Origin: Flavobacteriales bacterium
Lineage (GTDB): Bacteria > Bacteroidota > Bacteroidia > Flavobacteriales_F > PHOS-HE28
Direction: 5' to 3'
NCBI GenBank assembly: GCA_016713875.1
Contig: JADJOI010000003.1
Span: 3,576,069-3,640,068 of the forward strand
Length of the DNA: 64,000 nt
Shown here: positions 13,570 through 35,005 of the stretch, piece after piece
Layout of the letters: each line of letters opens with the position of its first letter
Position numbering within the stretch: position 1 is the stretch's first letter
Made by a program: the position numbers and the translations under genes
Notes under the pieces: model-generated
What the model was told of the DNA's origin: nothing
Database searches by the model: none
What the model saw: the letters and a program-made list of their open reading frames with translations, nothing else

Positions 13570-14136
13570 TCAGTCCACCTTCACCACCACGTTCCCGATC
13601 TTCTGACCGGTCTCCACATACCGTGTCGCCTCCACAAGTTCATCGAAGCCCACCACACGATCGATCAGCGGTCGCAAAGTGCCCGCCTCGGCCATGTTCC
13701 GGAAGTGATCCACGTCGGCACGGCTGATGCTGGGAAGCGGGAATAGCACCCGCGGCCCCTTGCGCAGGCCGCCGATGAGTGCCAGGAAGACGTTCTCGCC
13801 GCGCGGACCGAGCTCCGTGCTGATGTAGCAACCCTTTTCGGTGAGCAGGTGCTTGCACAGGGTGAAGCGGCTCTTTCCGACCGCGTCGAAGACCAGATCA
13901 TAAGGTCCAGGTATCGTGCGGAAGTCGGTGGTGGTGCGGTCGATCACGGCGTGTGCCCCCAGCGCCTTGATGCGGTCCACGTAGGGCGTCGAGCACACGG
14001 CGGTCACCTTGGCGCCGAGCGATACTGCGAGTTGCACCGCTCCCGAGCCGATGGCACCCGTGGCCCCGTTCACCAGCACCCGGCTGCCTGCACCATGCTG
14101 CCATCCCCGCGGAACCGCGTGGTCAGGTATCGGCCC
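13570..14136 (-). pseudogene. zinc-type alcohol dehydrogenase/quinone oxidoreductase (MDR) C-terminal fragment, N-terminally truncated
   Basis: Starts at the Rossmann motif RVLVNGATGAIGSGAVQLA. The in-frame upstream sequence reaches a stop after ~19 codons. The GroES-like domain is absent. Confidence 0.6.
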
Positions 14137-14601
14137 TCATCTGCCCGCCCAGGGCACGGGCGCGCACTGCCCGGCTTCCCATGCGAGCATGCCGTGCACG
14201 CGCTCCACGCGCTCAAGCTGCTGCTCTGTGGCCACGGCCTGCACGCGCTGGAAGATCTCGCGCTCCTCGAAGCGGATATGCGAATCAAGCTCTTCCTCGA
14301 TGCCGGAGAGCTCGCTGGGCGCGTCATCATCTGCCAGGAACAGGCGCGTGAGGCGCCGGTGCTGGGCCAGCGCCACCTTCACCAGCGGGTCATCGGCCCC
14401 GAGGACCGGGAATATGGCCTCCTCCTCCACGGCGAAATGCGGCAGCAGCTGCTCGCGGAAATAGCGGGCGCACCGCTGCTTCACCCCAGCCGGATCGGTG
14501 CCAGCGGTTAGTTCTTTCCGGATGTACCAGCACAGCAGCAGGCCATCGTGGTGCTCGCGGCTCATGGGCCGCAGCAGCGCATGCCGCTCAAGCGGCGGCA
14601 T
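14137..14601 (-). CDS. hemerythrin domain protein
   Basis: HFAVEEEAIFP and HIRFEEREIF H-x-x-x-E motifs. Start uncertain (14565 or 14601). Confidence 0.55.
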   Translation of the reverse strand: MPPLERHALLRPMSREHHDGLLLCWYIRKELTAGTDPAGVKQRCARYFREQLLPHFAVEEEAIFPVLGADDPLVKVALAQHRRLTRLFLADDDAPSELSGIEEELDSHIRFEEREIFQRVQAVATEQQLERVERVHGMLAWEAGQCAPVPWAGR

Positions 14602-15320
14602 GGCCCAACTGCTTCTCCAAGGCGATCGCTCGTGGGAAGAGGATGTTGTTCTCCAGGTGGATGTGCAGATGGAGGTCCTGCTCGAACTCCTTGAGCATAC
14701 CATGGCCGTGTAATAGGTGGCGCAGCCATCGGGCGGGTTCTGGTAGCCGTTGCTCAGCTCAGCGATGCGGCGGAAGCGCTCACCCTCGGTCTCATGCTCG
14801 TCCATCATCATGTGCACGGGGTTCTCCACCGTGCCGAAGGGTGGCATGGGCGCGGGCTCGCCGGTCTTCTCGGCCTGCTCCAAGCGCACGATGAAGGGGA
14901 AGAGGATGAGCTCCTCCTTCTTCATGTGCGCGGCCATACCATGGCGCATTCGTTGAACTCCGTAGCGATGTCGAAGAGCTCGGGGTGGCGATCGCCGTGA
15001 ACCCGGCAGAGCTTCTCGAGGAACTGCTGGATGGTGGGGGTGCGGGCCTCGATGTACCGATGGTGCACGCGCTCGATATGCTCCACCAGCCTGCCCAGGC
15101 TCCAGGTCTTGAAGTCGCTATCGGCCGCCGTGTCGCGGTTGAGCACCTCGTGGATCTCCTGCTCGATGACCTTCTGGTCGATGCCCTTGGTGCGGCAGGC
15201 CTCCTCCAAGGAGCGGCCGCCCTTGCAGCAGAAGTCGATGCCATGGGCGTTGAAGACGGCTGCGGTGCGGAAGTCATCGGCCACGATGGAGCCAATGGTG
15301 CTGGTGGGTGCGATTTGCAT
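14588..15320 (-). pseudogene. iron-sulfur cluster repair di-iron protein (RIC/YtfE/ScdA family), two frameshifts
   Basis: N-terminal domain HGIDFCCKGGRSLEEACRTKG in one frame; HMKKEELILFPFIV...MMMDEHETEGE in a second; FEQDLHLHIHLENNILFPRAIALEK terminus in a third. Confidence 0.7.
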
Positions 15321-15414
15321 GGATTGGTTCTTAATTGCGCCAAATGAACGGGCATGCATGGCCGCTTTAGCTGACGCTCGTCAGGACCTTCGGTCATGAA
15401 CTTGTCACGAACGC

Positions 15415-17070
15415 GCTATTCCTTGACCACGATGAGCTGGCTGCGCTGAGCCGCGCCCATGAGCGTAACGCGGTACAGGCCGGCCGGCAAGCCGCGCAGG
15501 TCGATCTTGGCCTGCTGCGCCGCCATTGCCGTTCTGCTTCACCACCAACCGACCGAGCGCGTCGTTCACTTCCAAGCTTACCAGCGCGAATTCGGAGCGA
15601 ACCACCACTTGGCCGCTCGTGGGATTCGGGAACGCGTTCGCACCGCCGCTGGTCGGTTCACTGACTCCAAGCGACGGGTCCTGCACGATGTACTGCAGCA
15701 TCATCATGTTGTCCTCATGCAGCAGGTTGTGGCAGTGGTACATGAAGGGCCATCCGTCGGTGACCTCGCCGAAGCGCATCACCAGCTTCACCGTCCCCAA
15801 GCGGTCCACCAGCACCACGTCCTTGGGCCCTTGCTCCCAGGCGGGCGGCGGCGCACCGTTGCGCTCCAGCACGGTGAACGACACGCCGTGGATGTGCATG
15901 GGGTGCGCCATGTTCGAGTTGTTCACGATGTTCCACACCTCGACGGTGTTGAGCTGCATGGTGTCGTTCACCACGTCGATGTCGAACATGAGGCCGTCGA
16001 TCATGAACATGCCCATGCCCACCATGCCCATGCCGGTGATGGTCTTGGTGCGCGTGCGGATGCTCTCTGATTCCGAAGGCATGGGCACGTTGAGCAGCGC
16101 GGGAGGAATAGCGATGATGGGGTCAACTGTGGGGGCGGTGACGCGGATGCGCAGCACCGGGAAGCTCACGCCGTTGAGGATGCTGCTCTCCCACATCATG
16201 TTGCCCGAGCCGGGCACGGTGTTCGGCAATTCGTCGCCGTAGCTCATCAGCAGCAGGCTGTCGCCTTCCATGCCGGTGAGGTCCAAGAGCACCTCAGCGC
16301 GCTCGCCGTTGCTCAGCCAGAGGCGATCGGTGGCGGTGGGCGCGGGCAGCAGTCCACCATCGCCGGCGATCACGTGCAGGTCCTGGCCGTTGTCGAGGCC
16401 CAGCGGATAGATGCCGCGTTGGATCCGTTGAGCAGGCGCAGGCGCACCACTTGCGCGGGGCATTCCAGGTAGGCGTTCGGCGTGCCGTTCACCAGCACCG
16501 AATCGCCGAAGGGATAGAAGGCGAAGTCGCCGCTGGGGAGGAATTTGCGGTCCTGGATCACCACGGGGAAATCGTCCACGCCGTAATCGCGGGGCAAGGC
16601 GAGCTGTTCTTCCTCTTCATCACGCACGACGATGAAGCCGGCGATGCCGAAGTTGGCCTGCTCCGCCGTGAGCTCGTGCGGATGCGGATGGTACCAGTAT
16701 GTGGCCGCCGGGGTCTTCACCACGAACTCCGCCATGAACGAATCGCCGGGGTCGATGATCCGCCGAGGGCCGCCGTCCATCTCACCGGGCACGTGCATGC
16801 CATGCCAGTGCATGCTGGTCATCTCCGCCAATTCGTTGTGGATGCGGATACGCGCCGTGTCACCACGATGCAGGATCAACGTGGGGCCGAGGTACTCGGC
16901 GCTCGCGCCCAGGTGCTCGTGTTGATACCGGGGTAGAATTGGTGCACGTGCTCGTCGGTCACCAGGTCGAAGGTGTCCAGGTCTAGGGCGGGCGGAATGG
17001 CGAGCGGGTTCTGCGCGGCGAGGGTCAATGAAAGGACCAGTGCGGGCAGCGTGCGGATTCGGGCGATCAT
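15415..17070 (-). pseudogene. multicopper oxidase (CopA/CueO-like) with T9SS C-terminal domain, at least 3 frameshifts
   Basis: Signal peptide frame (MIARIRTLPALVLSLTLAAQ) shifts to the HWHGMHVPGEMDGGP frame, then the HPMHIHG...MYHCHNLLHEDNMMM frame, then the LYRVTLMGAAQRSQLIVVKE* CTD frame. Confidence 0.75.
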
Positions 17071-17469
17071 GGGTGCAGGTATTCGCCGCCGAAGGTATCC
17101 AGTGGTGGCGGGCAGGCGCCTGCTGTCGATCAGCTGCCAGCGGTGCCGGTGGCCGCCGCGCGCATCTATCTTCTTAGCCCCGACTTTGACGAGAATGATG
17201 GCGATCCGAAGAACCCCAGCCCCCGTGGGCGGGCTGGTGCCCCTGGGCCCAAGGCGTGTGGCCCATCGCGTGGCGCGGCCCGCATGCCGTGCTCAAATGG
17301 GTGTACACAATACATGCGAAGCCGCCCATGGTGGCTTGCGCATCCATTGGAATGTGAGCCAGGCCGACATCGTGCGCGCCATGGAGGCGCACGCGGCCTT
17401 CAGCCGGGCGCCTCCGTGCAGCTCGGCCCACTGGTGCGCCGGCGCATCCTGCAACGCAAGTGGAGCTTC

Positions 17470-17560
17470 GAGCGCGGCAGCTTCTTCTACCGCATCGAGG
17501 GCGCACGGCCCGGACGCGAATGGAGCATGGGCGAGCAGGAGCCCCTGGAGCGGCTGAAAG
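17470..17560 (+). repeat. ~90-bp direct repeat, copy 1
   Basis: ttcgagcgcggcagcttcttc...gaatggagcatgggcgagcagga...ctggagcgg; about 85% identical to 18012-18100. Confidence 0.8.
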
Positions 17561-17680
17561 CGGTGGAAGAAGCGTGAAGCGGTGACCCCGGCTCACGCGC
17601 CCAATGCACGCAACGCCTCATACACCCGTTGCGTGGGCAGGTGCTCATTTGCTCACCTGCATGCGCATGGCAGGAGCGCG

Positions 17681-17983
17681 ATGATCGCGCACCTTGCGCC
17701 CATGCCCGCATGGCTCAGCGAAGCACCGCGGTCCATCACGCTCCGCGTGCATGTGCAGCCCGGCGCCAAGCGCACCGAGGTGGCTGGCACGCATGGCGAT
17801 GCGCTCAAGATCCGCCTGGCCGCTCCGCCGGTGGATGGGCAGGCGAACGAAGCGCTCCTCTCCTATCTAGCGGAGCAATTCGGCGTGCCCAAGCGGCAGG
17901 TGGAATTGGTGAGCGGGCACGCGAGCCGCAGCAAGCGCGTGCTGGTGATTGAACCTGTGCACAGGCCGGATCGGGGGTGGTGA
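17681..17983 (+). CDS. DUF167/YggU family protein
   Basis: ITLRVHVQPGAKRTEVAGTHGDALKIRLAAPPVDGQANEALLSYLAEQFGVPKRQVELVSGHASRSKRVLV. Confidence 0.75.
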   Translation: MIAHLAPMPAWLSEAPRSITLRVHVQPGAKRTEVAGTHGDALKIRLAAPPVDGQANEALLSYLAEQFGVPKRQVELVSGHASRSKRVLVIEPVHRPDRGW

Positions 17984-18011
17984 AGCCGCCTGTCTGCGCA
18001 GGCCGTGCCGC

Positions 18012-18100
18012 TTCGAACGCGGCAGCTTCTTCGGCCGCATCCAAGGCGCGAGGCCCGGACGCGAATGGAGCATGGGCGAGCAGGAATTGCTGGAGCGGTT
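18012..18100 (+). repeat. ~90-bp direct repeat, copy 2
   Basis: See 17470-17560. Confidence 0.8.
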
Positions 18101-18809
18101 GAAGGCGGGGAAGAACCAGCGATCGCGTGCGCGATGTCACGGTGAAGAATAGTCATGATCGAGCCCGGATGCTTCGTTGACAACGGCCCTGCGAGATATC
18201 GTTCCGATCGCGACTAATGCTGCTCACCATCAATACTGCCATGCCGCGCCCACGCCCCTTCCCGCATTGCTCGTGCTCACGACAGCAACTTGTGCCACCT
18301 CCGCGCAGCGCTTCCCGGCGGCAGCAAAGTGCAGTACGGCGAGAAGGATGGCGCGCCCTACCTGGCGCAATGGACCGATGGCGCCTCGGTGCCCATCGCG
18401 GTGACCGCCGGTGTGGCGCCCGCGAAAGGAGAAATCGAGGGCGTGTGCGCCGATGTGTAACGCGACCTCTTCGGCGGCTGAATCCGCTGGCGTCACCACG
18501 CTCCACCAGGTCTTCAACGCCGACCTCAACCCTATTGGGTTCATGGTGGAGAAGCCGCTGGGCAACCTCTTCGATCATATCGCGGGGAAGATGAGGGAGG
18601 CGCATGGGTAGGAAGCAAGGGCACGGGGGCGCCGAAGACGGAGAGCCCGCTGCGGTTGAGAAGCAGTGCCATACACGGATGCAAGACCCGATGATCCTGG
18701 TCACGGTATGGAGCATCCGGGCGGGGTGCTACATTCCGGCCCGCAAGCGCTTCGCGACGCGCGCGGCCACCGCCCATGCCTTGATCCATGAAGACAGCCT
18801 CGCACACCC

Positions 18810-19509
18810 ATGGAGAACACCAGGATCCTGATCGTTGAGGATGAGCCGGATGTCCTGCAGTTCATCCGCCAGGGGCTGGAGGAGCATGGGTTCACGGTGG
18901 ATTTCGCCTATGATGGCGAATGCGGGAAGAAACTCGCGCTGTCCAGGAACTACGACCTGATCGTGCTCGACCTGATCATCCCGCAGCTCAACGGGCTCGA
19001 GCTGTGCCGCACCCTCCGCGAACGCGGGCTGGAATCCAAAGTGCTCATGCTGACGGCGCTGGGCACGCTGGATGACAAGCTCGAAGGCTTCGAGGCCGGG
19101 GCGGACGACTACCTCATCAAGCCCCTTCGAGTTCCCTGAGCTGCTGGCCCGCGTGAACGCGCTCCTGAAGCGCACTGCGCACACGGCCCCGGCGGCGGCA
19201 GCGCCGCAGAACATCCTGCGCGTAGCCGACCTGGAGATCAACTGCGACTCGAAGCGGGCGAGGCGAGGAGGCGAAGAGATCGCGCTCACAGCCAAGGAAT
19301 TCGGCCTGCTGGAGCTGTTGGTGCGCAACAAGAACCGCGTGGTGAGCAAAGTGGAGATCGCCGAGAAGATCTGGGACATCCACTTCGACCGGGGCACCAA
19401 CGTGATCGAGGTGTACATCAACTTCATTCGGAAGAAGGTGGACAAGGGTCATCCGGTGAAGCTGCTGCACACCGTGGTGGGCATGGGCTACGTCATCAAG
19501 GATGCATGA
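18810..19509 (+). pseudogene. OmpR-family response regulator, 1 frameshift
   Basis: Receiver domain (ILIVEDEPDV...DLIVLDLIIPQLNG) shifts frame at a C-run near 19125 into a winged-helix domain (LTAKEFGLLELLVRNKNRVVSK...VVGMGYVI). Confidence 0.75.
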
Positions 19510-19512
19510 GGC

Positions 19513-20933
19513 ATGAAGATCAAGACCCGGTTCACCCTGCTCTTCGCCTTCGTGGTGGGCGCGATCCTCTTCTTCTTCTCCTATGCCATCTATTACTTCT
19601 CACAGGATTACCGGCAGAAGGATTTCGAGCTGCGGCTGCGCGATCGGGCAGTGGAGGTGCTCGAGTCGGTGAAGAGCGAAACGGCGCCCGCGCAGCGCAA
19701 CGAGGAGGACAACCCCCATGCGCTGATCGGCGAACGCTCGCCATCCATGCCACCGATGGCCGGTTGCTGTTCGGCGAAGCGATACCCCTGCCCGCCGCCA
19801 TGGGCCTTGCGAGGGTGCATGAGCAGAGTCCCTACACCTGGGCCGAGAAGGACCGAAGGGAGGGCATCGCTTTCCTGCACACCTATGATGGCGTCGAGCA
19901 TGTCATCATCTCCACCGCCTACGACCGGCACGGGTGGAACTACATCGACAACCTCAAGCGCATCCTCATCGTCCGTCCGATCATCCTCATGCTCATCATC
20001 TTCATCAGCGGCTACGTGTTCGTGAGCTTCTTCCTCAAGCCCATTTCGACATGGTGAAGCAGGTGGACCGACCACCCACAGCAACCTCAGCCATCGGCTC
20101 ACGGCTGCGCATCCGCATGACGAGATCGGGCAGCTCACCGCCACCTTCAACCGCATGCTCGACCGGCTCGAGTCAGCCTTCAACGTGCAGAAGCGCTTCG
20201 TATCGAATGCCTCGCATGAGCTCCGCAATCCGCTCACGGCCATCGGCGGCAAGATCGATGTGGCGCTGATAAAGGACCGCGGCACCGAGGAATACAAAGA
20301 GACCCTCAAGGCCATCTCGGTCCACATCCGAAGCCTCAGCGCGCTCACCAACAACCTGCTTGAACTGGCCAACAGCGATGTGGAGACGCTCTTCCAGAAC
20401 CTGGAGGAGGTGCGGGTGGACGAGGTGCTTTGACCTGCCGCGAGAACCTGCTCAAGCAGAACCCCGACTATCGCGTGGACATCCGCTTCGAGGGCATCAG
20501 CGACGATGGGGCCGACCTGCTGTGCAAGGGCAAGAGCAAGCTGCTGGAGACCGCCTTCATCAACATGGCCGAGAATGCCTGCAAGTATTCCGAGGACCGC
20601 ACGGTGCGTATCCGCGTCACCGCTGACAAACGCAACATCATCCTGTTCTTCACCGACCATGGCATCGGCATGCCGGAGGAGTACCTGAAGCACCTCTTCG
20701 AGCCTTTCCACAGGGGTCGCAACGTGCATGGTGTCTCCGGCAAGGGCATCGGGCTGGCGCTGGTCAAGGGCATCATCAAGCTGCACTCCGGGAAGATCTT
20801 CGTGCAGTCCAAGGTCAACCGCGGCACCACCATTGAGATCGCGCTGCCCAAGATGGCCTGGAGCCGCTGGCCGGTCTTTAAGGCGGTTTTAACGAGGCGC
20901 GCGTTGAAGGCCGACCGAGGCGCTGATCTTTAA
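19513..20933 (+). pseudogene. sensor histidine kinase, at least 4 frameshifts
   Basis: TM N-terminus; then the HisKA motif FVSNASHELRNPLTAI and HATPase motifs (NMAENACKYS, DHGIGMPEEYLKHLFEPFHRG, GKGIGLALVKGII) spread over 4 frames. Confidence 0.75.
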
Positions 20934-20981
20934 TGAGGCTTAATGCCATGCTAAGCGGGCTTTAAGGAGGCGGTTCCAGCT

Positions 20982-22113
20982 TTGTCGGGCCGGATGACCC
21001 TCGCCGAGTTCCACAGCCACCTGTTGCCGCGCCTGCGTGCGGAGATCGCCCAGTTGTTCCCGGCCCATTTCGCCTTGGTGATGGCCACGGGCATCGTCTC
21101 CATAGGCGCTTACCAGTTGGGCATGCCCATGGCGGCTCAAGTGTTGTTCGGCTTCAACAAGACAGCCCACCTTATTCTGTGGCTGATGCTCCTGCTCCGG
21201 CTCATCTTCTACAGCGACCGGTTCCTTCGGGACATCTCCGATCACGCCGGAGCCCGGCTTCCTCACCGTGGTGGCCGCCACCAATGTGCTGGGCAGCCAG
21301 TACGCCATCATCGCCGAAGACCCTGGGCCGGCACGCTGGCTCTATTACCTCGGCTTCGCGCTCTACGTGGCCATCATCTACTTCTTCTTCGTGATGATCA
21401 CCGTGAAGCGGGGCAAGCCAACGCTCGAGATGGGGATCAATGGGGTGTGGCTGCTCATGGTGGTGTCTACCCAATCGGTAGTCGTCCTAGGGACCCAACT
21501 GGCCGACCTGCTCTCTTCATCTCCAAGGAAGCGGCCTTGTTCATCTCGATGCTCCTGTTCTTCATCGGATGCATGCTCTACATCATCGCGATCCCTGATC
21601 TTCTACCGCCTCACCTTCTTCGAGATGAGGGCCGAGGAGTGCGCCCCGCCGTTCTGGATCAGCATGGGTGCGGTGGCCATCACCACCCTCGCCGGGGCTA
21701 CTTTGATCAACGCCGCATCCCAGTGGGAGCTGCTGGCCGCTCAAGCATTCATCACCGGCCTCACGCTACTGTTCTGGGGTTTCGGCACCTGGTGGATCCC
21801 GATCATCATCGTGCTCGGGATGTGGCGCCATCTGTACCGCCTGATTCCCATGAGCTACCACCCGCAGTACTGGGGCATGGTATTCCCGATCGGCATGTAC
21901 ACGGTATGCACCTACAGGCTTGCCCAAGCGCTGGAACTCCACTTCCTGCTGCCCATCCCGCAAGCGCTGGTGTACATGTCGCTGTTCGCATGGGCCACCG
22001 TAATGACCATGTGGCTGCGCCTGACCTTGGAGAACTCGCTCTCATTCACCTCAAAACGAGCAAGCCATGAACACGCCCTTCACCACCATCGAGACCCGGC
22101 ACACACCAGTTGA
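20982..22113 (+). pseudogene. TDT family transporter (TehA/Mae1-like), at least 2 frameshifts
   Basis: LFPAHFALVMATGIVSIGAY then a frame switch to VAATNVLGSQYAII...WWIPIIIVLGMWRHL. Confidence 0.65.
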
Positions 22114-22128
22114 ACCGATCAGCCGGCT

Positions 22129-22928
22129 AAAGGAGATGACCGTGCCCGACTTCGAGTCAGTGCCCGGATCCCCGCACGCGCACTATTACGGAGAGGTGGG
22201 CTCCTATCCTTCGACATCAAGCATGTGCGCTACGGGCCCATGAGCGCCGTGCCTTCCATCGTGGGCGACATCCGCGAAGGGGTCAACGGCTCGGTCATTA
22301 AGCTCGAGTTCGACATCGAGGAGCACTACACCATGACCAAGCGGATGTACGGCGCTACGTTGATTCCGTTGAGCCTCATCTTCATCCTGCTGAGCGTGCT
22401 GATGCACTGGGGAACCGAGTACCAATGGCAGAGCCTGACTGCCTCTGGATCCTTCCTGGCGATGTCCCTGCTCATCATCTGGTTCGCCAAGGTCTCCTCA
22501 AGAGCATCCGCAAGAAGGAGCTCGGAGAGTACATAGAGGCCGTGGATGGGCATGTCATGGTGAACACGAGCCTGGGCGACCACAGGCACTCCCTGGAGCT
22601 GAGCCCCCGCCTGAGGCGCTACATCGATCCGGTGCCGGTCGGTCGGTGCCTGCACCATGCGCTGACGTTGGCAGAACGCTTCATGTGGGGCGAGAGCCAG
22701 CAGCAAGCATGGAGACGGCCTGGAAGAACCGGTCGATCACCACTGCGAATTGAGGATGTGAATAAGAGAGCAGGCCGTGCCTTTCCTCACTTCTTCACCG
22801 CCGCTGCCGCAGACTCTAGACTTTGTCCCGCGCTTAGGGTTCAGACCATAGCGAAGAAGGGCCACCGAAGAGGACTGAGCTGGGCTTGGGCAGGGCTATC
22901 GGCTCTTAAACCCACGGTGGGCGGTTAA
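22129..22928 (+). pseudogene. hypothetical membrane protein, frameshifted
   Basis: Three consecutive frames give one continuous-looking protein (MTVPDFESVPG... / ...DIKHVRYGPMSAVPSIVGDIREG...LIIWFAK / GLLKSIRKKELGEYIEAVDGH...). No family assigned. Confidence 0.3.
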
Positions 22929-22934
22929 TCGATC

Positions 22935-24716: not shown

Positions 24717-24720
24717 AGGA

Positions 24721-26146: not shown

Positions 26147-26185
26147 ATGGGAATGATGCGTAACACACCTCAAGGACGATCGATC

Positions 26186-27917
26186 ATGAAGGTGGTCCGG
26201 CTGCTCTGTGCGGTTGTCATCATGAGCACCATCGGAGATCTGCGTGCACAGCCTTTCGATACGATTCAAACGCGGTTCAGCACGCTGCCGTTGGAAGAAC
26301 TGATCGTACGGGAAAAAAGCGACCACCGACGCGCGTGAGAAGGTCGCGCTGCTCTCCAGGCTCGTAATGAAGTACCTGTACCTCAACAAGCAGGACGAAT
26401 GCACGAGCACCTCGATCCGCACGCTTGAGGTGGCCGAACCCACCAGGAACGACACGCTTATCGGCAGGGCGCATCTGGCCATCGGGTCGGCATTCACCAT
26501 CGCCAATGACGTGAACGGGGCATTGAAGCATTACAACTTATCGCTCGACCACTACACAAGTGCTGGTGACAGTATTTGGATGGGCGCGGTGTGCAAGGAG
26601 CTCGCCGTGCTCTATCAACGCGTGGGCGACAATGATGGCTCCATGCGCTACATGCGCAAAGCGCTGGCTTTGGGCATGCCCCCCGGGATCCGTTCGCGAG
26701 GGCTGTCAACAATAGCCCGGGTCTTCATGGACCGTGGCGAGCTCGATTCCGCGCTGTACTACACCAAGCAAGTGGAAATGGTCGGTTCACCAGGCGTGGA
26801 CCCATGGACCTACACGTATTCGAACGGTGCGCTTGCCGCAGTGTATGCGGCCCGGAAAGAGAACCATCTGGCCGAGCTGCATTTCAAGCGCACGATCGCC
26901 GCTGCTGATTCGTTCCAACTACCGCTTCCCCTCGTTCAGTTCGCTTCGGAGTATGCTTCCTTGCTCATGGAACAGGGCCGCACAGCGGAGGCGCAATCCA
27001 TCGCGCAATTGGCTTTCCGAGCCGCAGAAGGGGTGAGCAACCCAGGGATGGCGCAGAGAGCTGCCGAAGCCCTGGCCGATGCATACCATGCGAACGGCAG
27101 GACGGATAGCGCGTTCCATTACGCGAAGCTCTGCATCTCATTTCGCGACAGCGTTATCTCCACGCAGAACCGCAGCCAGCTCCAGAGCCAGCTCTTCGCG
27201 CAGCAGCTCAAGGACATGGAGGATGCCAAATTGCGCGCGGAGGAAGTCGCGACCCGCTCCCGCAACATCCAGTTCGGCATCATCGCCCTCATCGTTATCA
27301 CGCTGGGCATCTTCCTGCTGGTGTTCAGCCGCACGGCGGTGGTCGGCGCCAAGGCGATCAAGAACCTTTCGCTCATCGCGCTGCTGCTCTTCTTTGAGTT
27401 CATCAATCTACTGGTGCATCCTGTACTGGGTGAACTCACGCACCACTCGCCGTTGCTGATGCTGCTGTGCATGGCCGCCATCGCCGCGTTGCTCATCCCG
27501 CTGCACCACCGCATGGAGAAGCTCATCACCAACATGCTCGTGAGCAAGAACAACCGGGTGCGGTTGGAGGCGGCGCGGCGGACGATCGAGGAGTTGGAGG
27601 GGGCGGGGAAGGGGAGGCCGATGCGGCGGGTTGAACACGGACTGGTCGTGCTCCACTGTCGAGCAATCAGGGATCACAGTTCCCGTTCGAACTGCGGAGC
27701 GAAATGCTCCTCTCAACGGGCTGCGATCGCATCCAACCGTTCGAGAATGCGGCGCAGCAGCACCACGGTCTCCTCACTGGCCGCTGAGGAAGGACTGGTT
27801 TGTTCAGGTTCGCGCCCATGCTTCAAGGCTTCGCGCTGTGCCAGGATCCGGTCGCGGAACTCGTGCGCGTCGATGATGCCGATCAACCGCATGTCGTGCG
27901 CTTGTCCCTGGCTCTGA
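26186..27917 (+). pseudogene. TPR/transmembrane paralog C, frameshift near 26320 and unresolved 3' end
   Basis: Signal peptide MKVVRLLCAVVIMSTIGDLRAQ in one frame; MKYLYLNKQDE...TPR body...RSRNIQFGIIALIVITLGIFLLVF...LHHRMEKLITNMLVSKNNRVRLEAARRTIEELE in the next. The ORF then overruns into the opposite-strand gene, which is likely spurious. Confidence 0.6.
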
Positions 27918-28252
27918 CCGGCCGTCTCGAACTTCAGGATGCTCAGGTTGAAGTGCTTGAGCAGAGGACCCTCCACGAAAGTCACATCCTGGATGTTCTC
28001 CAACGGGATCGTCTTCTCGATCTGGAACAGGATGCCCTTGCGGTAGCGCAGCAGCTTCGGCCCCAACTCGCATTCCAACTTATCGAAGTAATGGCGGGCC
28101 CACCATTGACCCACACCAAGCACCCAGATCACGGCCAGCGGAATGCACACGACCGTTGCAGCAAGGAATAGGGCGACCTGAAGCACCAGGTACGGTCGTA
28201 TGAGCGGGTTGAAGCGCGCGCGTAGCGGTTCGGGCGGGGTAACGTCGGTCAT
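27713..28252 (-). CDS. bacterial PH domain (bPH_2/YdbS-like) membrane protein
   Basis: Two TM helices then GILFQIEKTIPLENIQDVTFVEGPLLKHFNLSILKFETAG. Only the last 179 aa of the 341-aa track ORF are credible. Confidence 0.65.
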   Translation of the reverse strand: MTDVTPPEPLRARFNPLIRPYLVLQVALFLAATVVCIPLAVIWVLGVGQWWARHYFDKLECELGPKLLRYRKGILFQIEKTIPLENIQDVTFVEGPLLKHFNLSILKFETAGQSQGQAHDMRLIGIIDAHEFRDRILAQREALKHGREPEQTSPSSAASEETVVLLRRILERLDAIAAR

Positions 28253-28339
28253 GCGCCTTTTCGTGTTTCTGTGGTGGCCAATGCCGAATGTACCGGTTCC
28301 CACCAGTCGGGTCGCTTGTTGTCCGCTAGCCTTGCACTG

Positions 28340-28440
28340 AAGAGGATCGTTGAAAGCGGCGAGAAGGACGATCGAGGAGTTGGAGTCCACCTCCGCCACG
28401 GCTTCTGCGGATGAAAGGGCGGGAAAGGGTGAGGCGCCGT
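28340..28440 (+). repeat. orphan 3' end of the TPR/TM paralog family (…AARRTIEELESTSATASADERAGKGEAP*)
   Basis: Shares aagaaggacgatcgaggagttggag with the 3' ends at 24670, 26095 and 27580. No gene body upstream. Confidence 0.6.
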
Positions 28441-28479
28441 AGATCCGGTCAGTGGTACTATGCCCGTGCCGTTGGTGGT

Positions 28480-30308
28480 TCAGCGACAGCTCGAGGATCG
28501 ATCCGCCCTCAGCGGGTTCGTGAGGCTGCCTGCACCAGATGCGTCTTGAAGCAGCAGGATCGCATGCGCCGATCCCGGTTCGTCCGTGTCGATGGGATCT
28601 GCTTCGGAAACGTTGTACCACGTCGAGTGGACCGTCGAAGCACTTCCGGGAAGGACACCAGCGGCCATCCGATCGCGTGCGCGCTGGATGGTTTCCTCGC
28701 GCCATGCGCCTGCCGGGTGCCACGGTGTGATCGTGCAAGCGGCGATCCCATCGTGCTTCATGGCGAAAGGCAATGCGCGTTCACCGGTCGGTTCAAACGA
28801 TGGTTCGCTATCAAGCACGATGTCAGGAACGACACCCTCCAGTTGCACACTGGTCCCCGATGGTCGGAAGAAGAGGCCCACGGTGATCTTGGCGGAACCA
28901 GTGGAGGTCACTGCGCCATCAGCATCAGCGATCGGCGCGAGGGGCACCATGTTCTGGATGGTGCCTTTGCCGTAGGTCCGAGGTCCACCCAGCACCACGG
29001 CGCGCTTGTGGTCCTGCAAGGCGGCCGCGAAGAACTCAGAGGCCGATGCGCTGTGCTCGTTCACGAGCACGACGAGCGGTCCTCGATAGCGGGCCCGCTC
29101 CGGGGTCGTCGAAAGCACGCGCACGGTGCCGTCACGGGGCAAGGCGCTGCGCGACGGGTCCCGCATCGAGAAAGAGGCCGAGGATGTGGATGGTCTCGCT
29201 CATGCTGCCGCCCTGGTTGTCGCGCAGGTCGATGGCGAGGCCGCCGATCCCTGCGTACAGGAGGGTGTCGAGCAGTTCCGCGACGTCCTGGGAACAGCGC
29301 GGCGCGCTCCCGCCGGACAGGTCGGTATAGAAGCGCGGCAAGGTGATCACACCGATGGGTGGACCGGCACCACGCACCACACATGCCCGCGCCTGGCCCG
29401 CCGCAGGGTGGATGAGCGCGCGTTCCAGGACCACGGTCCGTTGTTCGCCGTCCGCCTGGCGAAGGATCAGCTCCAGCGTGCTTCCGGCCGGGCCACGAAG
29501 CAGGTCCACCGTTGCGTCGATGGAAAGACCAGGCACCGGCACGGGTGCGGCGTTCAGCTCGCGCACCGTCAGCAGCTCATCGCCCATGGCCAATGCACCG
29601 CCCAACGCCGCGGGGCCGCCGGGTTCCATCGACCCGATGCGGATGCGGCCATCGGTGCTCGACAGCGTGACACCGATGCCGACGAAGCTCTGCGTCATCG
29701 CATGGTCGAAGCCCGTACGCTCTTCCGCCGACAGGTAGGTGCTTTGTGCGTCATGCACGTTCGCCAGCGTGCCAAGGAAAAGGTCCATGCGTTCTTCACG
29801 TCCGCGCTCGATCCGGGCGCGCAGGTCGTTCTGTGCGCGGGCCCGCACAAGGGCCCTGGCCTCATCTGCGGAACCGCCCAGGGCAGCACGGACCTCCGAG
29901 CTGCGTTCGGCGAGTCGGCAATGCCAGCGTCGGTCCGGTTCTGCGTGCGCAGTGGGCGTGCCGTCCCCATCGACCAGTGCCAGGGCGCAACAGACCGGCG
30001 TACATCAGGCTGTCGCAGCGATGCACGAACGATGGCACACCGTGCGCCAGTTGGTCATCGATGTGCAAGCGATCGCTGGCCAGAATTTCGCGCTCTGGCG
30101 CTGAGAGATAGAGGGTGTCCGGGTCAAGGGTGCGCAGGTAGCTGTCGAAGACGTCCGCTGAGAACCGGTCGTCGATGGCTCGTGGCGCGAAGTGCCGCTC
30201 CCGCAGGATCGTCATCAGCTCGGCGATGCGCGCGCTGTCGGCGTCCAGTTGCGCGGGGCAGAAAGTGCAGCAGGACAGGCAAAGAGCGAATCCCGTGATG
30301 CGTAGCAT
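28480..30308 (-). pseudogene. S41 family C-terminal processing peptidase, at least 2 frameshifts
   Basis: N-terminus ELMTILRERHFAPRAIDDRFSADVFDSYLRTLDPDTLYL. PDZ region; GVITLPRFY...DLRDNQGGS; LVVLVNEHSASASEFFAAALQDHKRAVVLGGPRTYGKGTIQ. Spread over three frames. Confidence 0.75.
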
Positions 30309-30419
30309 GATCCGAAGGTATCGGCAGTGGCATGCGTGGGATCCAAGGAACTGTTAATGGCCGGTTGCTGTTAGTGGTAACGGAGCGGGTTGCTGCATGA
30401 AGGCGAAAGTCAGCGCGCA

Positions 30420-30490
30420 TCTCTCCAAAGGCTGGAGTCGGTAAGAAGGACGATCGAGGAGTTGGAAGGTGGGCCGCGCAAGGACTAACC
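30420..30490 (+). repeat. second orphan 3' end of the TPR/TM paralog family (…RRTIEELEGGPRKD*)
   Basis: Same 24-bp core gtaagaaggacgatcgaggagttgga. Isolated. Confidence 0.55.
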
Positions 30491-30543
30491 CCATATCGCG
30501 TCCCAAAGCCCCTCGATGATATCGGGGTCTTGAGCCTCCGTTG

Positions 30544-31416
30544 TCAACGGACCATGACGCGCTCAACGAACCATTCACCTCGACCCGAACTGAACTGCAA
30601 GACATACGCGCCTGGGCGATCGAACGTAATGACCTGTTCGCCACGGACGGTCTGCGCGCTCAATTGCCGTCCGGTCGCGTCGAAGACGGTCATGGAGCCT
30701 TCAACCCCAGTAATGAAGACCGGCTCTCCGCGGGAGGCCAGGGAAGGTCTGATCCACGATCCGGCCTCTTCACGCTCTCCGATCCCGACCCCCAGCGTGC
30801 ATTGCGCGACCAATGGGTTCTGCCAGGTGATATCCGTATCCTCATAACACCGAAGACCCGCGAAGACCTCGCCATCGCAGACGCCATAGAGCCAGGCGAA
30901 CGGCGCGATCAGATTTCCGAGCCGCTCCGTGACCGTACCTCCGAAACCGAAGCTGGACCACTGCCTGGACTCCACGCTCACTTCCAGGCTGCGCAGCGAA
31001 AGTCCATCCACCCAGATCAGGCTCGTATCCAGCACGGTCCAATCGAGTGTATCCTGCTGACCGATCTGCACCACCGGAGTGGACCACACATCACCGATGG
31101 CCGCGTTCCATCGAAAGACCAGATGATGCTGGCCTGTGCTTGATCCGAAGTAGAACAGGGAGTCCTGCGACTCCGAGAGGAACTGGGCAAGTTGATGACA
31201 GCCGAACCAACCCTCGTTGATCTGGAGCTTCTTGCATATTCGGCCCTCGATGAGCGTGTCGCCCGTCACCTCGATCACCATCAGGGCGGTATCTGGACCG
31301 CCCCAATGAGCCTGCTTGTAGGTCCATTTCGCACCGGTCGGAGCGAACGTCGTCTGCGCATGCATCGAGGTCGCGACAAGAGCGGCGCTGAGCGTGAGGA
31401 TCTGCCCGTTGGTCAT
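30544..31416 (-). CDS. T9SS-sorted secreted protein (paralog of 12078-13526)
   Basis: Signal peptide MTNGQILTLSAALVATSMHAQ. FAPTGAKWTY and CDGE..LRCY motifs shared with 12078-13526. C-terminal ...GAYVLQFSSGRGEWFVERVMVR. Confidence 0.6.
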   Translation of the reverse strand: MTNGQILTLSAALVATSMHAQTTFAPTGAKWTYKQAHWGGPDTALMVIEVTGDTLIEGRICKKLQINEGWFGCHQLAQFLSESQDSLFYFGSSTGQHHLVFRWNAAIGDVWSTPVVQIGQQDTLDWTVLDTSLIWVDGLSLRSLEVSVESRQWSSFGFGGTVTERLGNLIAPFAWLYGVCDGEVFAGLRCYEDTDITWQNPLVAQCTLGVGIGEREEAGSWIRPSLASRGEPVFITGVEGSMTVFDATGRQLSAQTVRGEQVITFDRPGAYVLQFSSGRGEWFVERVMVR

Positions 31417-31494
31417 GGCATGGTGAAGATAGACCAACTGGACGCGTTTCCAGGGCGAAGTGCTGCCCGGGATCAGGCCGGACCCCCCCACCCC

Positions 31495-31620
31495 CTCCAA
31501 CGCCACCTTCGCCCCATGCACAGCCTGCCCCGCGCATTTGGCGGGGTTCTTCACGACCTGTCCCGCCTTAGCGGGATCCAGCACGCTGATCCGCAAGGTG
31601 CCTGACACATCGCGGACGTT
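31495..31620 (-). repeat. mfd 3'-end-like fragment F5 (orphan, hairpin-containing)
   Basis: Minus-strand translation ...GTLRISVLDPAKAGQVVKNPAKCAGQAVHGAKVALEGVGG is homologous to the Mfd C-terminus (KFKVYEKAGTLRVSVQD...). Contains the stems ccccgcgcatttggcgggg and tcccgcc..gcggga. Confidence 0.7.
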
Positions 31621-31630
31621 CGGGAGCCTT

Positions 31631-32002
31631 TAGAGCAGATGCAGCGTGAGTTCGTTCTTGAGCTTCTTGAAGTGCTTGTCTTCCGTGACGAGCGGTACTC
31701 CGGAGCCGGATGGCGGTCGCCGCGATCAGCGCATCGGCGAGTTTCATTCGATAACGAGCACGGAAGTCCATGGCTGCTGACTTGATCCCGTCGTCGAGGT
31801 CCACGATCTTGATGAATGCCAGGTCGGCGGTCACTTTCGCACGCTCATGGGCCGTGTAGCCATGAAAGCCGAGTATTTCGATCTCGGTGACGAAGGAGAC
31901 GTGGATGATCGTGTCTTCGAGCAGCGGCGTTGTGCGCGCATCGCCGTCCCAGTGGTGGATCAATACGTTGGTGTCGACCAGCAACGACTTAGCGGTCATC
32001 AC
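31631..32002 (-). pseudogene. vapC: PIN-domain toxin VapC, 1 frameshift near 31690
   Basis: MMTAKSLLVDTNVLIHH...ADALIAATAIRL, then a frame switch to PLVTEDKHFKKLKNELTLHLL*. Confidence 0.65.
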
Positions 32003-32213
32003 GCATGGTCTTCAAATACTCCTTCATACGCTCCGCTATGCCGGGGATCATCCCGGAGGAGCGCTTGGCATCGTAGCCTTTCTGCTTCTGCCGTTTGGAT
32101 GTTGTTCTCGGGGTCGTCTTTCGTGCGTATACGGCCTGCGGGTCGCTCACCACGGTAAGCGCCTTCTCCGAAGTCTGCTTGGGTTTCTTTGGTCGCTTTG
32201 AGCTGGTGGCCAT
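31989..32213 (-). CDS. vapB: VapB-type antitoxin (small basic protein overlapping vapC start)
   Basis: 74 aa. Ends MIPGIAERMKEYLKTMRDDR with a 14-bp overlap of the vapC start codon region. Confidence 0.45.
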   Translation of the reverse strand: MATSSKRPKKPKQTSEKALTVVSDPQAVYARKTTPRTTSKRQKQKGYDAKRSSGMIPGIAERMKEYLKTMRDDR

Positions 32214-32261
32214 GGATCGAAGATAGGTCAGGCCACCTCCTTCACCCCCACCACACTCTCC

Positions 32262-32395
32262 ATTGCCGCCTTCGCCCCTTCGATGTTCTTCACGACCTGT
32301 CCCGCCTCGGCGGGATCCTGCACGCTGATCAGCATCGTTCCCGCCTTCTCGTACACCTTGAATCGGCATGGTTTGCCCTCGGCAAGTTCTCAAGT
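32262..32395 (-). repeat. mfd 3'-end-like fragment F4
   Basis: Encodes ...RFKVYEKAGTMLISVQDPAEAGQVVKNIEGAKAAMESVV...* ; ~85% nt identity to F3 over the core. Confidence 0.7.
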
Positions 32396-32413
32396 GTGAA
32401 TGACCGGCAGGCC

Positions 32414-32977
32414 TCACCGGCGGATCTCGAATCCAGTCTCCGTCGATACAGTGTCAACCATTGGTGCAAGTCGGATCCGATCCTTACGGGTAAAGACCGT
32501 GTCAACTCCCCATTCACCCAACTCACCTGTATTCATCGAAACAACGAGTGTGTCGTTAGTCTCCACGAGGAACGCGCTGCGTTCATAGACGCCGCCATGG
32601 TCGTCGTTCTCGATGAGGGAGAACCAATGGGGCTGCTTCGAGCATCCATCGAAGAGGGTGAGCGTCAGATACCGCACCGCATGGTCGCACTCGGGAGAGC
32701 TGTTCAGCACGAGGAGTCCGATGCGAGATTCTCTTATGATGACCTTGCCTATGACCCACGCAGAATCACTTTCCGTCATTCTCCTGTCGTGGAGGGCATG
32801 GAACCCTTCCGCATCCAGGCGGATCCAACTCGGGTCGATCGCCTTGTCAACGTAATCCAGATCGAAGTGGCGTTCCGATATCTCGGGAACGAGCAAGAGC
32901 ACTTCGCAAAGGTCCTGTGGGGATGAGGGTAGGCGAGAAGCACAAGGTTGACCGAGCACGAGCGGCACACAGGTCAA
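32414..32977 (-). CDS. hypothetical protein (cargo between F3 and F4)
   Basis: Open frame with non-biased composition (…SAWVIGKVIIRESRIGLLVLNSSPECDHAVRYLTLTLFDG…). No family recognised. Start uncertain. Confidence 0.35.
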   Translation of the reverse strand: MTCVPLVLGQPCASRLPSSPQDLCEVLLLVPEISERHFDLDYVDKAIDPSWIRLDAEGFHALHDRRMTESDSAWVIGKVIIRESRIGLLVLNSSPECDHAVRYLTLTLFDGCSKQPHWFSLIENDDHGGVYERSAFLVETNDTLVVSMNTGELGEWGVDTVFTRKDRIRLAPMVDTVSTETGFEIRR

Positions 32978-33079
32978 TTAGGACAGGTAGGGCTTCATGC
33001 CAACTGGTTCAAGTATTGGTTGAACGATCTACGGCCCAAGTTCTTATGCTGCAACGTTCACCTCAACAACCGATTCCAT

Positions 33080-33270
33080 CGCCGCCTTCGCCCCTTCGAT
33101 GTTCTTCACGACCTGTCCCGCCTCGGCGGGATCCTGCACACTGATCCGCGACGTCCCCGCATTCTCGTACACCTTGAACCGTCGTGGTTGCGCCTGCGCG
33201 GCGCGCAGCAGCGCGTTGAAGCCAATGGCCTCAAAGAAGCCATACTTCCGGTCGGCAAAGGCTTCAGGCC
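33080..33270 (-). repeat. mfd 3'-end-like fragment F3 (longest)
   Basis: Encodes AFADRKYGFFEAIGFNALLRAARAQPRRFKVYENAGTSRISVQDPAEAGQVVKNIEGAKAAMESVVEVNVAA*. Aligns with Mfd ...GDGFNAVLRAVQAQPGKFKVYEKAGTLRVSVQDTKTLHEAKEVLGAVLVVPA*. Confidence 0.75.
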
Positions 33271-33563
33271 GCCTTGGCTGTCGCCAGTGGGATCTCCGCC
33301 AACTCCTTGCCTTTTCCTTTGAGCTCTTCTTCGATATCGAAATCGTCCTGTAACCCCAGCCAGAACTTGGCCGAATTACCGAAGTACTTGGAGAGGCGCA
33401 GGGCGGTATCCGCTGTGACGCGACGCTCGCCCTTGATGATCTGAGATACGCGCGTTTGCGGGATACTGATGTCCTTGGCCAGGCGGTAGGCCGTGATGCC
33501 CATGGGTACGAGGAACTCCTCTTCGAGCACAGTGCCGGGGTGGATGTTCGGGAGCTTCTTCAT
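33264..33563 (-). CDS. higA: HigA family antitoxin (XRE HTH)
   Basis: MKKLPNIHPGTVLEEEFLVPMGITAYRLAKDISIPQTRVSQIIKGERRVTADTALRLSKYFGNSAKFWLGLQ. Confidence 0.75.
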   Translation of the reverse strand: MKKLPNIHPGTVLEEEFLVPMGITAYRLAKDISIPQTRVSQIIKGERRVTADTALRLSKYFGNSAKFWLGLQDDFDIEEELKGKGKELAEIPLATAKAA

Positions 33564-33574
33564 GGGTGCTGATC

Positions 33575-33865
33575 TTAATGGTAGTCGATGATCTCCACTT
33601 CGTAGGCGTTGCCGCTTTGCCACTTGAAAATGATGCGCCACTGGTCGTTGATGCGCACGCTATAGAAGTCCTTCAGGCGGCCAGCCAGTTTCTCCAAGCG
33701 GTTGGCGGGTGGGACGCGCAGATCGGCGATGTCTTGGGCGTTGTTGATCATCCGGAGCTTTCTTCTGGCCGTTTCCTGGATCGTCGAAGGCAGTTTCCGC
33801 TGTGGATCACCGTTCCAGATCCCTTCTGTCACCTTCGATCCGAACGACCTGATCATGTCCGGCAA
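33575..33865 (-). CDS. higB: HigB-like toxin (RelE/ParE superfamily)
   Basis: ...RLKDFYSVRINDQWRIIFKWQSGNAYEVEIIDYH is a HigB C-terminal signature. Sits upstream of higA as usual for higBA. Confidence 0.7.
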   Translation of the reverse strand: MPDMIRSFGSKVTEGIWNGDPQRKLPSTIQETARRKLRMINNAQDIADLRVPPANRLEKLAGRLKDFYSVRINDQWRIIFKWQSGNAYEVEIIDYH

Positions 33866-33904
33866 ATATACTATCGCGTGGCGTCACTAGCAACTGCCAC
33901 CCCA

Positions 33905-33950
33905 CCACCCCACCACTCCCTCCATCGCCGCCTTCGCCGCGTGGATGATC
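33905..33950 (-). repeat. mfd 3'-end-like fragment F2 (short; tail only)
   Basis: Encodes ...IIHAAKAAMEGVVG..., matching the AAKAAMESVVG tails of F3 and F4. Confidence 0.5.
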
Positions 33951-33968
33951 TGACCGAAGTAAAGTGGC

Positions 33969-35005
33969 CTAGGTCTTCTTTCGTGTTGCGGACCTCCCCA
34001 TGGTAAGCGCTTTCCTTGCGCTCAACGGTGTTACGACCTTCTTGCCAGTACGAGCCTCCAATTCCAAGCGCGCCACCTTGGCCACGTTCCCACCTTGTCG
34101 CGCCACTTCTTTGTTGTCCTCGAAGGTCTCGGGCTCGGTGGCTTGTGAAATGTCCTTCGCGGATGCCTCGGCAAGCATGTTCAGGATCAGTTCCGTGTTG
34201 GTCATATTGTCGCGGAGGTTCTCCTTCTTCAGGCCCTTGAGCACCTTGTACTCCTTCGTGCTGTTCCCGCTCCACGCCTTGGTGATTATGTCCGTGAGCG
34301 TCGCGAAGTGCATGCCTTCCTTCATCCCGCGTTTCCTCCATTCATCGGTCAGCTCCTTGCGGATCTCGATGCTCTGTAGGGAGGTTCAAAGCACATCGTT
34401 CCGGCGGCGATGTATTGAAGTAGAGTATCAGTGATGCTTGCTCCCGTTCGACCATACGGCGTTGCTCCTAGGCCGGATACTTCGTTCCAGTATCCTTGCC
34501 TCGGAGCGCCTTGTCTGGTCATACGATAGCTGTGCACGCCATCCGTTCGATGTGCTTTGAACCTCCCTGGCCGCTGGTTGATCCAACTCTCCGAGTAGCC
34601 CAGCCGCAGGTATTGTTCAAGCGCACGGTCGATGGTGATCTCCGGATCCGCCATTTCATCCATCCGCTCCGATGCCACTTGTGCCAGCCATAGTTTGAAC
34701 GGCTCGGCCTTGGGTGAAGGGATGGATTGGATCAGCCGGAAGAGCTGCTCGGTGTCGGCCACATCGGTGAGGCGGAGCTTGCCGTCGTCGGCGGGCAATT
34801 TCAACTGTCCGATTTTATCGGACAGTTGGCTGCCTTCCTTCACTAGCTTGGTCTTCAGGTCGTTCCAGTACTTGCGAGGGCGCTCGTTACCGGTGAGGGC
34901 CGCTATCACATCGATGATGGAGAAGAACCACTTCTCCTGCTCCCCGTCCCACACGGTGCGAACCTGCTTCTCCTCGAAGACCTTGATGGCGTTCTTGTCG
35001 GTCAT
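33969..35005 (-). pseudogene. DinD-like / Bro-N domain DNA-damage-inducible protein, at least 2 frameshifts
   Basis: N-terminal part KVFEEKQVRTVWDGEQEKWFFSIIDVIAALTGNERPRKYWNDLKTKL (Bro-N/DinD-like). C-terminal part HFATLTDIITKAWSGNSTKEYKVLKGLKKENLRDNMTNTELILNMLAEA aligns with E. coli DinD residues ~150-200 but lies in a separate ORF. Confidence 0.55.

Follow-up and report, generated by a model that had tools for sequence, protein, structure and literature searches.

The segment at 14157-32390 of the window (the whole 64,000-nt stretch of contig JADJOI010000003.1 analyzed here) is very probably a poorly corrected long-read consensus lying inside an otherwise well-polished contig, with an underlying genome that has intact genes. 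At least 13 genes that are broken in the window are full-length in reference assemblies of the same species, namely those for RIC, the multicopper oxidase, the response regulator, the histidine kinase, SLAC1/TDT, hyp182, hyp127, hyp80, TPR473, TPR482, bPH_2, S41 and PIN. The changes are local, restricted to a single assembly and error-like in their spectrum. A preliminary description of the same DNA had placed a cluster of broken genes at 13570-35005, between an intact RND operon and an intact mfd, and had read it as either a decaying accessory island or a low-coverage or misassembled stretch.

Reference assemblies and comparison

More than 30 same-species contigs from independent samples were recovered, including short-read metagenome contigs (megahit, SPAdes and Logan contigs, from at least 8 samples) and three MAGs (GCA_963853025.1, GCA_016717445.1 and GCA_016703685.1). 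They are 99.8-100% identical to the window in the flanks and cover its positions 598-56500, having a depth of 1-10 references per differing site, which falls to 1-2 across 24.6-27.5 kb and to 1 over much of that part. The window was read for premature stops or loss of frame in the frame that the same-species gene has in its intact form, and contigs of related species (~80-88% DNA identity at best) were used only for synteny and orthologue frames. The comparison with orthologous regions, proposed earlier as a check, also took in 37 related loci, and it places the region in the accessory genome and almost all the breaks in the window only. An extra 1049-nt IS piece, present in GCA_963853025.1 alone, is the only structural difference between the references and the window. 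The S41 fragment, used as a query in a homologous-protein search, gave 2 distant hits only, and no match was found in Rfam and tRNA scans of the window.

Extent of the private differences

At all 122 differing sites of the 18.2-kb zone, every covering reference (1-10 per site) stands against the window allele. The first private difference, at 14157, marks the start of the zone, within which private indels end at 31702 and private substitutions at 32390; the divergence of the window from the references in this zone is about 0.7%. Private indel bases amount to 3.24 per kb in the zone, against 0.15 upstream and 0.08 downstream (Fisher p = 2e-24). The defects are thus local, as had been described, and the frameshift density is not uniform across the contig. 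The upstream 13.6 kb contain 2 private indel bases, as do the downstream 24 kb, where both lie within a 21-nt tandem array.

The flanking genes are intact, including the 3.2-kb ORF of the RND operon and the 3.5-kb mfd, and a single private substitution, at 7484, was found in the flank with the RND pump and outer-membrane factor. The upstream flank is not entirely free of errors, however: the hypothetical 480-aa gene has a pair of compensating indels, after which the frame is back within 86 nt and the ORF still open, and this pair is a sporadic residual error outside the zone. On the other side, the sequence from 32391 to 35700 shows no difference from several references. The cluster of broken genes is real in this sequence, but the zone of errors is 14157-32390, narrower than the 13570-35005 first given.

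Table 1. Coordinates, strand and state of the features in and around the error-rich zone (L numbers denote contigs and loci of the comparison set)
Feature	Position	Strand	State
RND pump (1079 aa) and outer-membrane factor (481 aa)	7359-12043	+	Intact; ORFs; Pfam ACR_tran and OEP on identical proteins in references L001-L010
RND pump ORF	7359-10598	+	1079 aa
Hypothetical 480-aa gene	12078-13520	-	Compensating private indel pair, +A 12693 / -C 12779
ADH_zinc_N C-terminal fragment (169 aa)	13570-14079	-	169-aa ORF identical in L001-L005, L010 and L132; 0 private differences
Error-rich zone	14157-32390	.	122 window-private sites, ~101 events (59 indel bases, 67 substitutions)
RIC (ScdA_N + hemerythrin; 244 aa in references)	14588-15320	-	Two identical TGGCCA to TA-CCA miscalls, 14698-14700 and 14937-14939
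Multicopper oxidase, T9SS tail (551 aa in references)	15416-17070	-	Private indels 15520, 16415, 16910/11
Response regulator (232 aa) and histidine kinase (450 aa)	18810-20862	+	Full-length in 9-10 references; window breaks +C 19122, -T 19738, -G 20048, 20070 and 20432, +G 20860
SLAC1/TDT transporter (374 aa) and hyp182	20994-22614	+	Window-only breaks; 9 and 3 private indel bases
ISAs1 transposase, real pseudogene	23010-24113	+	Three ORFs (165, 97 and 119 aa) in all strains; gene calls in L132-L135; window adds private indels 23434, 23499, 23695
TPR/TM paralog array	24165-27634	+	473-aa and 482-aa copies intact in L132, frameshifted in window (reference depth 1-2); N-terminal truncation of 183-aa copy real
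bPH_2 (248 aa) and S41 C-terminal processing peptidase (599 aa)	27713-30308	-	Full-length in 5-7 references; window breaks +TA 28456-7, +C 28529, +G 29136, -GC 29985
hyp346	30544-31584	-	Intact in window; substitutions only
PIN/VapC (122 aa in references)	31630-31999	-	Private +G at 31702
hyp162, HigA (99 aa), HigB (93 aa)	32414-33856	-	Intact; same sequence as references
Bro-N gene, as 218-aa and 118-aa ORFs	33969-35005	-	Pfam Bro-N; split by 191-nt MITE-like insert
MITE-like insert	34378-34568		191 nt; perfect 21-nt terminal inverted repeats; 100% identical in L142-L150
Five mfd 3'-end remnants	31483-31602, 32241-32376, 33057-33192, 33908-33951, 35073-35193	-	Separate one- or two-gene cassettes; identical in same-species references
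mfd (1182 aa), downstream flank	35312-38860	-	Intact; 0 indels vs 6 references

Broken and intact genes

Every gene that the preliminary description listed as disrupted is disrupted in the window sequence and, reading in the intact same-species frame, bPH_2, hyp127 and hyp80 are disrupted as well. When the zone genes are read in the reference frame, the breaks in the window coincide exactly with private indels; the C-run near 19125, given earlier as an example, is one of them, a CCCC run having gained a C at 19122. The statement that nearly every recognisable gene of the range is frameshifted or truncated goes too far, since at least nine genes within 13570-35005 are intact in the window (hemerythrin154, PF1765-like, hyp75, hyp346, hyp74, hyp162, HigB, HigA and hyp118).

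Error spectrum

Indels and substitutions occur in the zone at a ratio of ~1:1 (59 indel bases and 67 substitutions), against 38 substitutions and 2 indels in the natural polymorphism of the flank. Changes in the length of existing runs account for 36 of the 59 indel bases (61%), about 40% being of other kinds. A T of the references is a C in the window at 25 sites, compared with 3 changes from A to G (binomial p = 2.7e-5), and TGATC became CGATC at 9 of 44 sites, while GATCA became GATCG at 0 of 41 (p = 0.003). The motif TGGCCA is miscalled at 4 of its 17 sites in the zone, two of them in the identical way (TA-CCA), and at none of 28 in the flanks.

The private substitutions in 14.2-27.1 kb carry no imprint of selection, with codon positions in the proportion 11:16:13 and a synonymous to non-synonymous ratio of 10:30, as compared with 10:3:19 and 22:10 for the flank polymorphism. 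The pattern is mixed in 27.6-32.4 kb, and in the block at 27176-27296 third codon positions make up 9 of 12 substitutions and synonymous changes 10 of 12; the private substitutions in this block and in part of 27.6-32.4 kb look like real polymorphism.

Errors at methylation motifs and in homopolymers are the main errors of nanopore consensus sequences (PMC6591954). As in residual nanopore errors, the zone is rich in indels that are tied to run lengths and has recurrent motif- and strand-specific miscalls, its rate of about 0.7% is inside the range reported for unpolished consensus, and its frameshifted ORFs disappear against short-read data. It differs from them in its motifs, GATC and TGGCCA and not Dcm-type CCWGG (0 of 62 sites altered), and in being limited to an 18-kb stretch of a clean contig, which points to a local failure of coverage or polishing and not to general sequence quality. 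The sequencing platform was most likely of the nanopore type.

Here it is proposed that the consensus took on ~100 small errors of three kinds: indels that alter run lengths, miscalls in or beside GATC and TGGCCA, two motifs that are probably methylated, and strand-specific calls of C for T. Between them, these errors would disrupt 13 or more genes. A long-read depth that was low or came from one strand, combined with failed short-read polishing, may have left the errors in place, in a segment that perhaps only some members of the sampled population have. The pipeline behind two of the same-species MAGs used Racon with --include-unpolished at the Illumina step (PMC8012365).

Alternative explanations

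Real lineage-specific decay, in which one strain would have gathered ~100 true mutations in an accessory segment after relaxed selection, is highly improbable. The region does resemble decaying genomic islands in being accessory and core-flanked and in the truncated genes, IS remnant and MITE insertion that all strains share; the ADH, ISAs1, TPR and Bro-N remnants are real and shared, and a species-specific insertion has its left edge 77 nt before the start of the zone. However, the bulk of the disruptions, those of at least 13 genes, are absent from the population, the cargo being intact in every other assembly, and none of the covering same-species assemblies has the changes despite their near-identity in the flanks. 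The spectrum is also non-biological, with as many indels as substitutions, a bias to one strand and identical compound miscalls repeated at the same motifs. Decay would further require local hypermutation, up to ~0.7% divergence, only in 18 kb beside near-identical flanks. Of the decaying accessory island first suggested, the accessory and horizontally acquired nature and a few real remnants in all strains hold, and the decay of the at least 13 genes does not.

A structural misassembly is just as improbable; here, a chimera of strains or paralogs would have caused the breaks through wrong joins or mis-polishing derived from paralogs. Repeats are present (three TPR paralogs, five mfd remnants and a 104-nt repeat), short-read contigs often end within the region, and the second TPR paralog of the window has bases like those of the third at 25813-25819. 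Against this, the zone is collinear end to end with the references in single HSPs, save for the 1049-nt IS piece in GCA_963853025.1, the defects are 1-2-nt changes with no junctions, and most errors are in unique sequence (the genes for the multicopper oxidase, histidine kinase and SLAC1). Gene conversion or mis-polishing driven by paralogs was likewise rejected as the main cause, both on account of this unique sequence and because the block at 27176-27296 is unlike the other paralogs and not derived from them. A low-coverage or misassembled stretch is an apt description in the sense of error (private changes with a long-read error signature) and not in the sense of a wrong structure.

Slightly less probable still is that the ~100 changes are real products of a local, strand-biased and motif-linked mutagenesis of the 18-kb accessory segment in one strain (T to C next to GATC, TGGCCA lesions and small indels), which would have inactivated the cargo and left the flanks untouched. 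That the window is right and the references are wrong is the least credible of all: some references are themselves MAGs, but they come from different samples, assemblers and technologies, the window alleles occur in none of them, and full-length ORFs with complete Pfam architectures are found in the references and not in the window. The accord among independent short-read assemblies already contradicts this reading. The GC content, also suggested for comparison with the core, was discarded as a discriminator, as its range in the zone (0.58-0.66) coincides in part with that of the flanks, and in mfd itself it is about 0.60.

With a poorly corrected consensus as the preferred reading, the window taken at face value would pass for a decaying island, and pseudogenes would wrongly be seen in a copper/nitrosative-stress module, in a two-component system and in the genes for a transporter, a protease and toxins. 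The comparison supplies an explicit list of positions that need correction. When frameshifts in a MAG are bunched in one strain-variable segment with clean flanks, this is a sign that polishing has failed there, and independent assemblies should be consulted before genes are declared pseudogenes.

Genuine remnants and the accessory region

The remnants common to all strains are the ADH fragment, the ISAs1 pseudogene, the truncated TPR paralog, the Bro-N gene split by a MITE and the five mfd 3'-end remnants. The MDR-dehydrogenase fragment, listed earlier among the genes split across frames, is truncated and not frameshifted, and is identical in all strains; its match in L041 is a 338-aa orthologue, to which it aligns over residues 165-337 at 87%. 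The gene called DinD-like is also disrupted, but it is a Bro-N gene interrupted in all strains by the inverted-repeat insert; in L035, it is one undivided 306-aa ORF.

The region is accessory, strain-variable and horizontally acquired, and consists of a species-specific ~10-kb stress and two-component module and an array of cassettes at the mfd 3' end. The part at 14.1-24.1 kb has a counterpart in 0 of the 37 related loci, and in two of the related loci (L050 and L020) the RND operon adjoins mfd. As in known hotspots of integration or accretion at gene 3' ends, a small cassette (toxin-antitoxin pairs, Bro-N and hypotheticals) comes after each of five displaced mfd 3' ends, and related species carry other single cassettes directly after mfd; the difference is that the cassette array of the window showed no integrase or recombinase. 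The mfd remnants are closer to the Mfd C-termini of other species than to the resident Mfd.

Frame disruption in the window and status of its genes in same-species assemblies

In the GC-rich window (GC ~0.58-0.70), the RND pump and mfd genes form long open frames, and in the interval between them the third-position GC plot switches frame every few hundred bases, with short open frames throughout. Intact orthologues used as tblastn queries scattered single genes across several window frames, as for the S41 peptidase of the related-species locus L017 (599 aa), which fell in frames -3, -1 and -2 at 30308-28534. The frameshifts of the preliminary description, which had reported about 21 kb of broken genes here, are therefore truly present in the window sequence. 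Its C-run example corresponds to a +C at 19122 in the response regulator and is private, that is, it differs from every covering same-species reference.

An identical copy of the outer-membrane factor protein is encoded on 22 public contigs. Further reference contigs were obtained by exact-protein look-up with hyp75, HigB, DUF4440 and MgtE, and a metagenome scan added others. These independent assemblies, which jointly span 598-56500, comprise short-read contigs (megahit, SPAdes and Logan; eight or more samples) and the MAGs GCA_963853025.1, GCA_016717445.1 and GCA_016703685.1. Their alignments to the window are collinear at 99.1-100%, and all differing columns were tabulated. The reference contig L148 is 100% identical over 33262-35687, as are L150 and L151 over their own spans. 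Gene status was judged against the reference gene calls (see table). A 104-nt direct repeat (86% identical; 17460-17563 and 18005-18108) lies on either side of the PF1765-like gene.

Features of the window and their status in the same-species references ("broken", in the window alone)
Feature	Window position	Length	References	Window
RND pump	7359-10598	1079 aa		long open frame
Outer-membrane factor	10598-12043
ADH_zinc_N C-terminal fragment	13570-14079		all strains (related-species L041 orthologue, 338 aa)	fragment
RIC (ScdA_N + hemerythrin)		244 aa	intact	broken
Multicopper oxidase		551 aa	intact	broken
hyp127, hyp80			intact	broken
Response regulator		232 aa	intact	+C at 19122
Histidine kinase		450 aa	intact	broken
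SLAC1/TDT		374 aa	intact	broken
hyp182			intact	broken
ISAs1 transposase			all strains	three ORFs
TPR paralog	24165-24717		all strains	N-terminally truncated
TPR/TM paralogs		473 aa, 482 aa	intact	broken
bPH_2		248 aa	intact	broken
S41 peptidase		599 aa	intact	-GC 29985, +G 29136, +C 28529
PIN/VapC		122 aa	intact	+G at 31702
hemerythrin154, PF1765-like, hyp75, hyp346, hyp74, hyp162, HigB, HigA, hyp118			unbroken	unbroken
mfd 3'-end remnants (n=5; 31483-35193)	31483-31602, 32241-32376, 33057-33192, 33908-33951, 35073-35193		all strains	remnants
Bro-N gene		218 + 118 aa	all strains (single 306-aa ORF in related-species L035)	split by 191-nt element
191-nt MITE-like element	34378-34568	191 nt	all strains	one copy
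mfd	35312-38860	1182 aa		long open frame

Distribution and signature of the private differences

The zone at 14157-32390 holds 122 private sites (~101 events; 59 indel bases and 67 substitutions), at which the window is contradicted by all covering references (1 to 10 per site). Upstream (598-14156), the private differences number three: one substitution (7484) and two indels that compensate each other (+A at 12693, -C at 12779); downstream (32391-42272) comparison with several references gave five private substitutions and no private indels. Over the downstream side to 56500, 38 substitutions, mostly clustered, and two indels, both in the 21-nt tandem repeat described below, separate the window from the reference L152. 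Indels reach 3.24 per kb within the zone, against 0.15 per kb upstream of it and 0.08 per kb downstream (p = 2e-24).

In mfd, four private substitutions fall within 16 nt (37340-37355; reference CCATGG to window CCGTGA), with 6/6 references against the window and no indel relative to them; this cluster could be micro-recombination or a further motif-linked miscall. The sole two indels relative to GCA_016717445.1 downstream of the zone sit inside a 21-nt tandem repeat (54662-55344; 32.6 copies, 95% match) within a strong GC-skew stretch.

Zone indels are about as frequent as substitutions, and 36 of the 59 indel bases change the length of an existing run, longer or shorter. The substitutions are strongly one-stranded (reference T to window C 25, versus A to G 3; p = 2.7e-5). 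TGATC became CGATC or a close variant at 9/44 zone sites, versus GATCA to GATCG at 0/41 (p = 0.003), and TGGCCA was changed at 4/17 zone sites, two of them to an identical TA-CCA; in the flanks, almost no GATC site and 0/28 TGGCCA sites are altered. Substitutions at 14.2-27.1 kb are distributed 11:16:13 over codon positions, with a synonymous to non-synonymous ratio of 10:30; the corresponding figures for polymorphism in the flank are 10:3:19 and 22:10. Nanopore consensus errors are dominated by two classes, those at methylation motifs and those in homopolymers (PMC6591954). The repeated compound miscalls at one motif, together with the one-strandedness and the missing selection filter, give these differences the look of consensus errors and not of inherited mutations; it is very improbable that a single strain underwent genuine local mutagenesis with a strand bias.

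The broken-gene cluster is no biological feature, and the zone resembles a residual long-read error tract in every respect that could be tested. A decaying accessory island, one of two alternatives proposed earlier, fails because the disruptions are not common to other strains. The other, misassembly, fails in the structural sense because collinearity with the references is kept. The zone starts 77 nt in from the left end of the species-specific insertion described below, and many short-read contigs of other samples terminate within the region. Most economically, long-read depth in the source sample would have been low or one-stranded over this accessory segment and short-read polishing ineffective, which would leave raw long-read consensus (~0.7% error) between polished flanks. 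For two same-species MAGs, the pipeline is stated to have used Illumina polishing via Racon --include-unpolished (PMC8012365).

Shared degenerate features and the accessory region

Five kinds of degenerate feature are common to all strains and are therefore real (see table). The MITE-like element has perfect 21-nt terminal inverted repeats and occurs once in the window and in every fetched locus. The 14.1-24.1 kb segment, which had no counterpart among 37 related Flavobacteriales loci, is a species-specific insertion. This ~10-kb module (14080-24165) lies between the truncated ADH gene and the truncated TPR paralog, has the ISAs1 remnant at its right-hand end, and carries hemerythrin, RIC, a T9SS-tailed multicopper oxidase, the response regulator and histidine kinase, and SLAC1/TDT. 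In GCA_963853025.1, 1049 additional nucleotides (14313-15361 of its locus; window site 22901-22908) include an IS630-type DDE_3 fragment; they are missing from the window and the references L133-L135, indicating strain-level IS variation.

A cassette array at 27.7-35.2 kb sits between a convergent TPR/TM paralog and mfd; in the related loci L030 and L031 this distance is just 76 nt, and in L050 and L020 mfd directly adjoins the RND operon. The five displaced mfd 3'-end copies have 53-64% protein identity to the resident Mfd C-terminus, are identical across all same-species assemblies, and, read along the mfd strand, each precede a cassette of one or two genes (hyp346, VapBC, hyp162, HigBA, Bro-N). 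Related species have one such cassette immediately after intact mfd. The array, a real and separate observation, resembles the product of serial accretion at the 3' end of mfd through one-sided-homology or site-specific insertion; no recombinase was seen.

Next to bPH_2 and the S41 peptidase are remnants (28350-28398 and 30432-30480; motif encoding LEAARRTIEELE) of the 3' end of the TPR/TM paralog, so that both convergent genes flanking the hotspot have had their ends duplicated within it. The TPR paralogs with C-terminal transmembrane segments occur in arrays of 2-5 (window 24165-27634; related loci L015-L051) that adjoin mfd in many activated-sludge Flavobacteriales MAGs; their last ~130 codons are highly conserved (~78-90% DNA identity between paralogs as well as between species), and the N-terminal portions vary. 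Upstream of mfd, the window (38875-39804), GCA_963853025.1 and GCA_016717445.1 carry a DUF4238 gene that is missing from loci L013, L143, L145 and L146, where DUF4440 directly adjoins mfd; this is a second site beside mfd that varies between strains.
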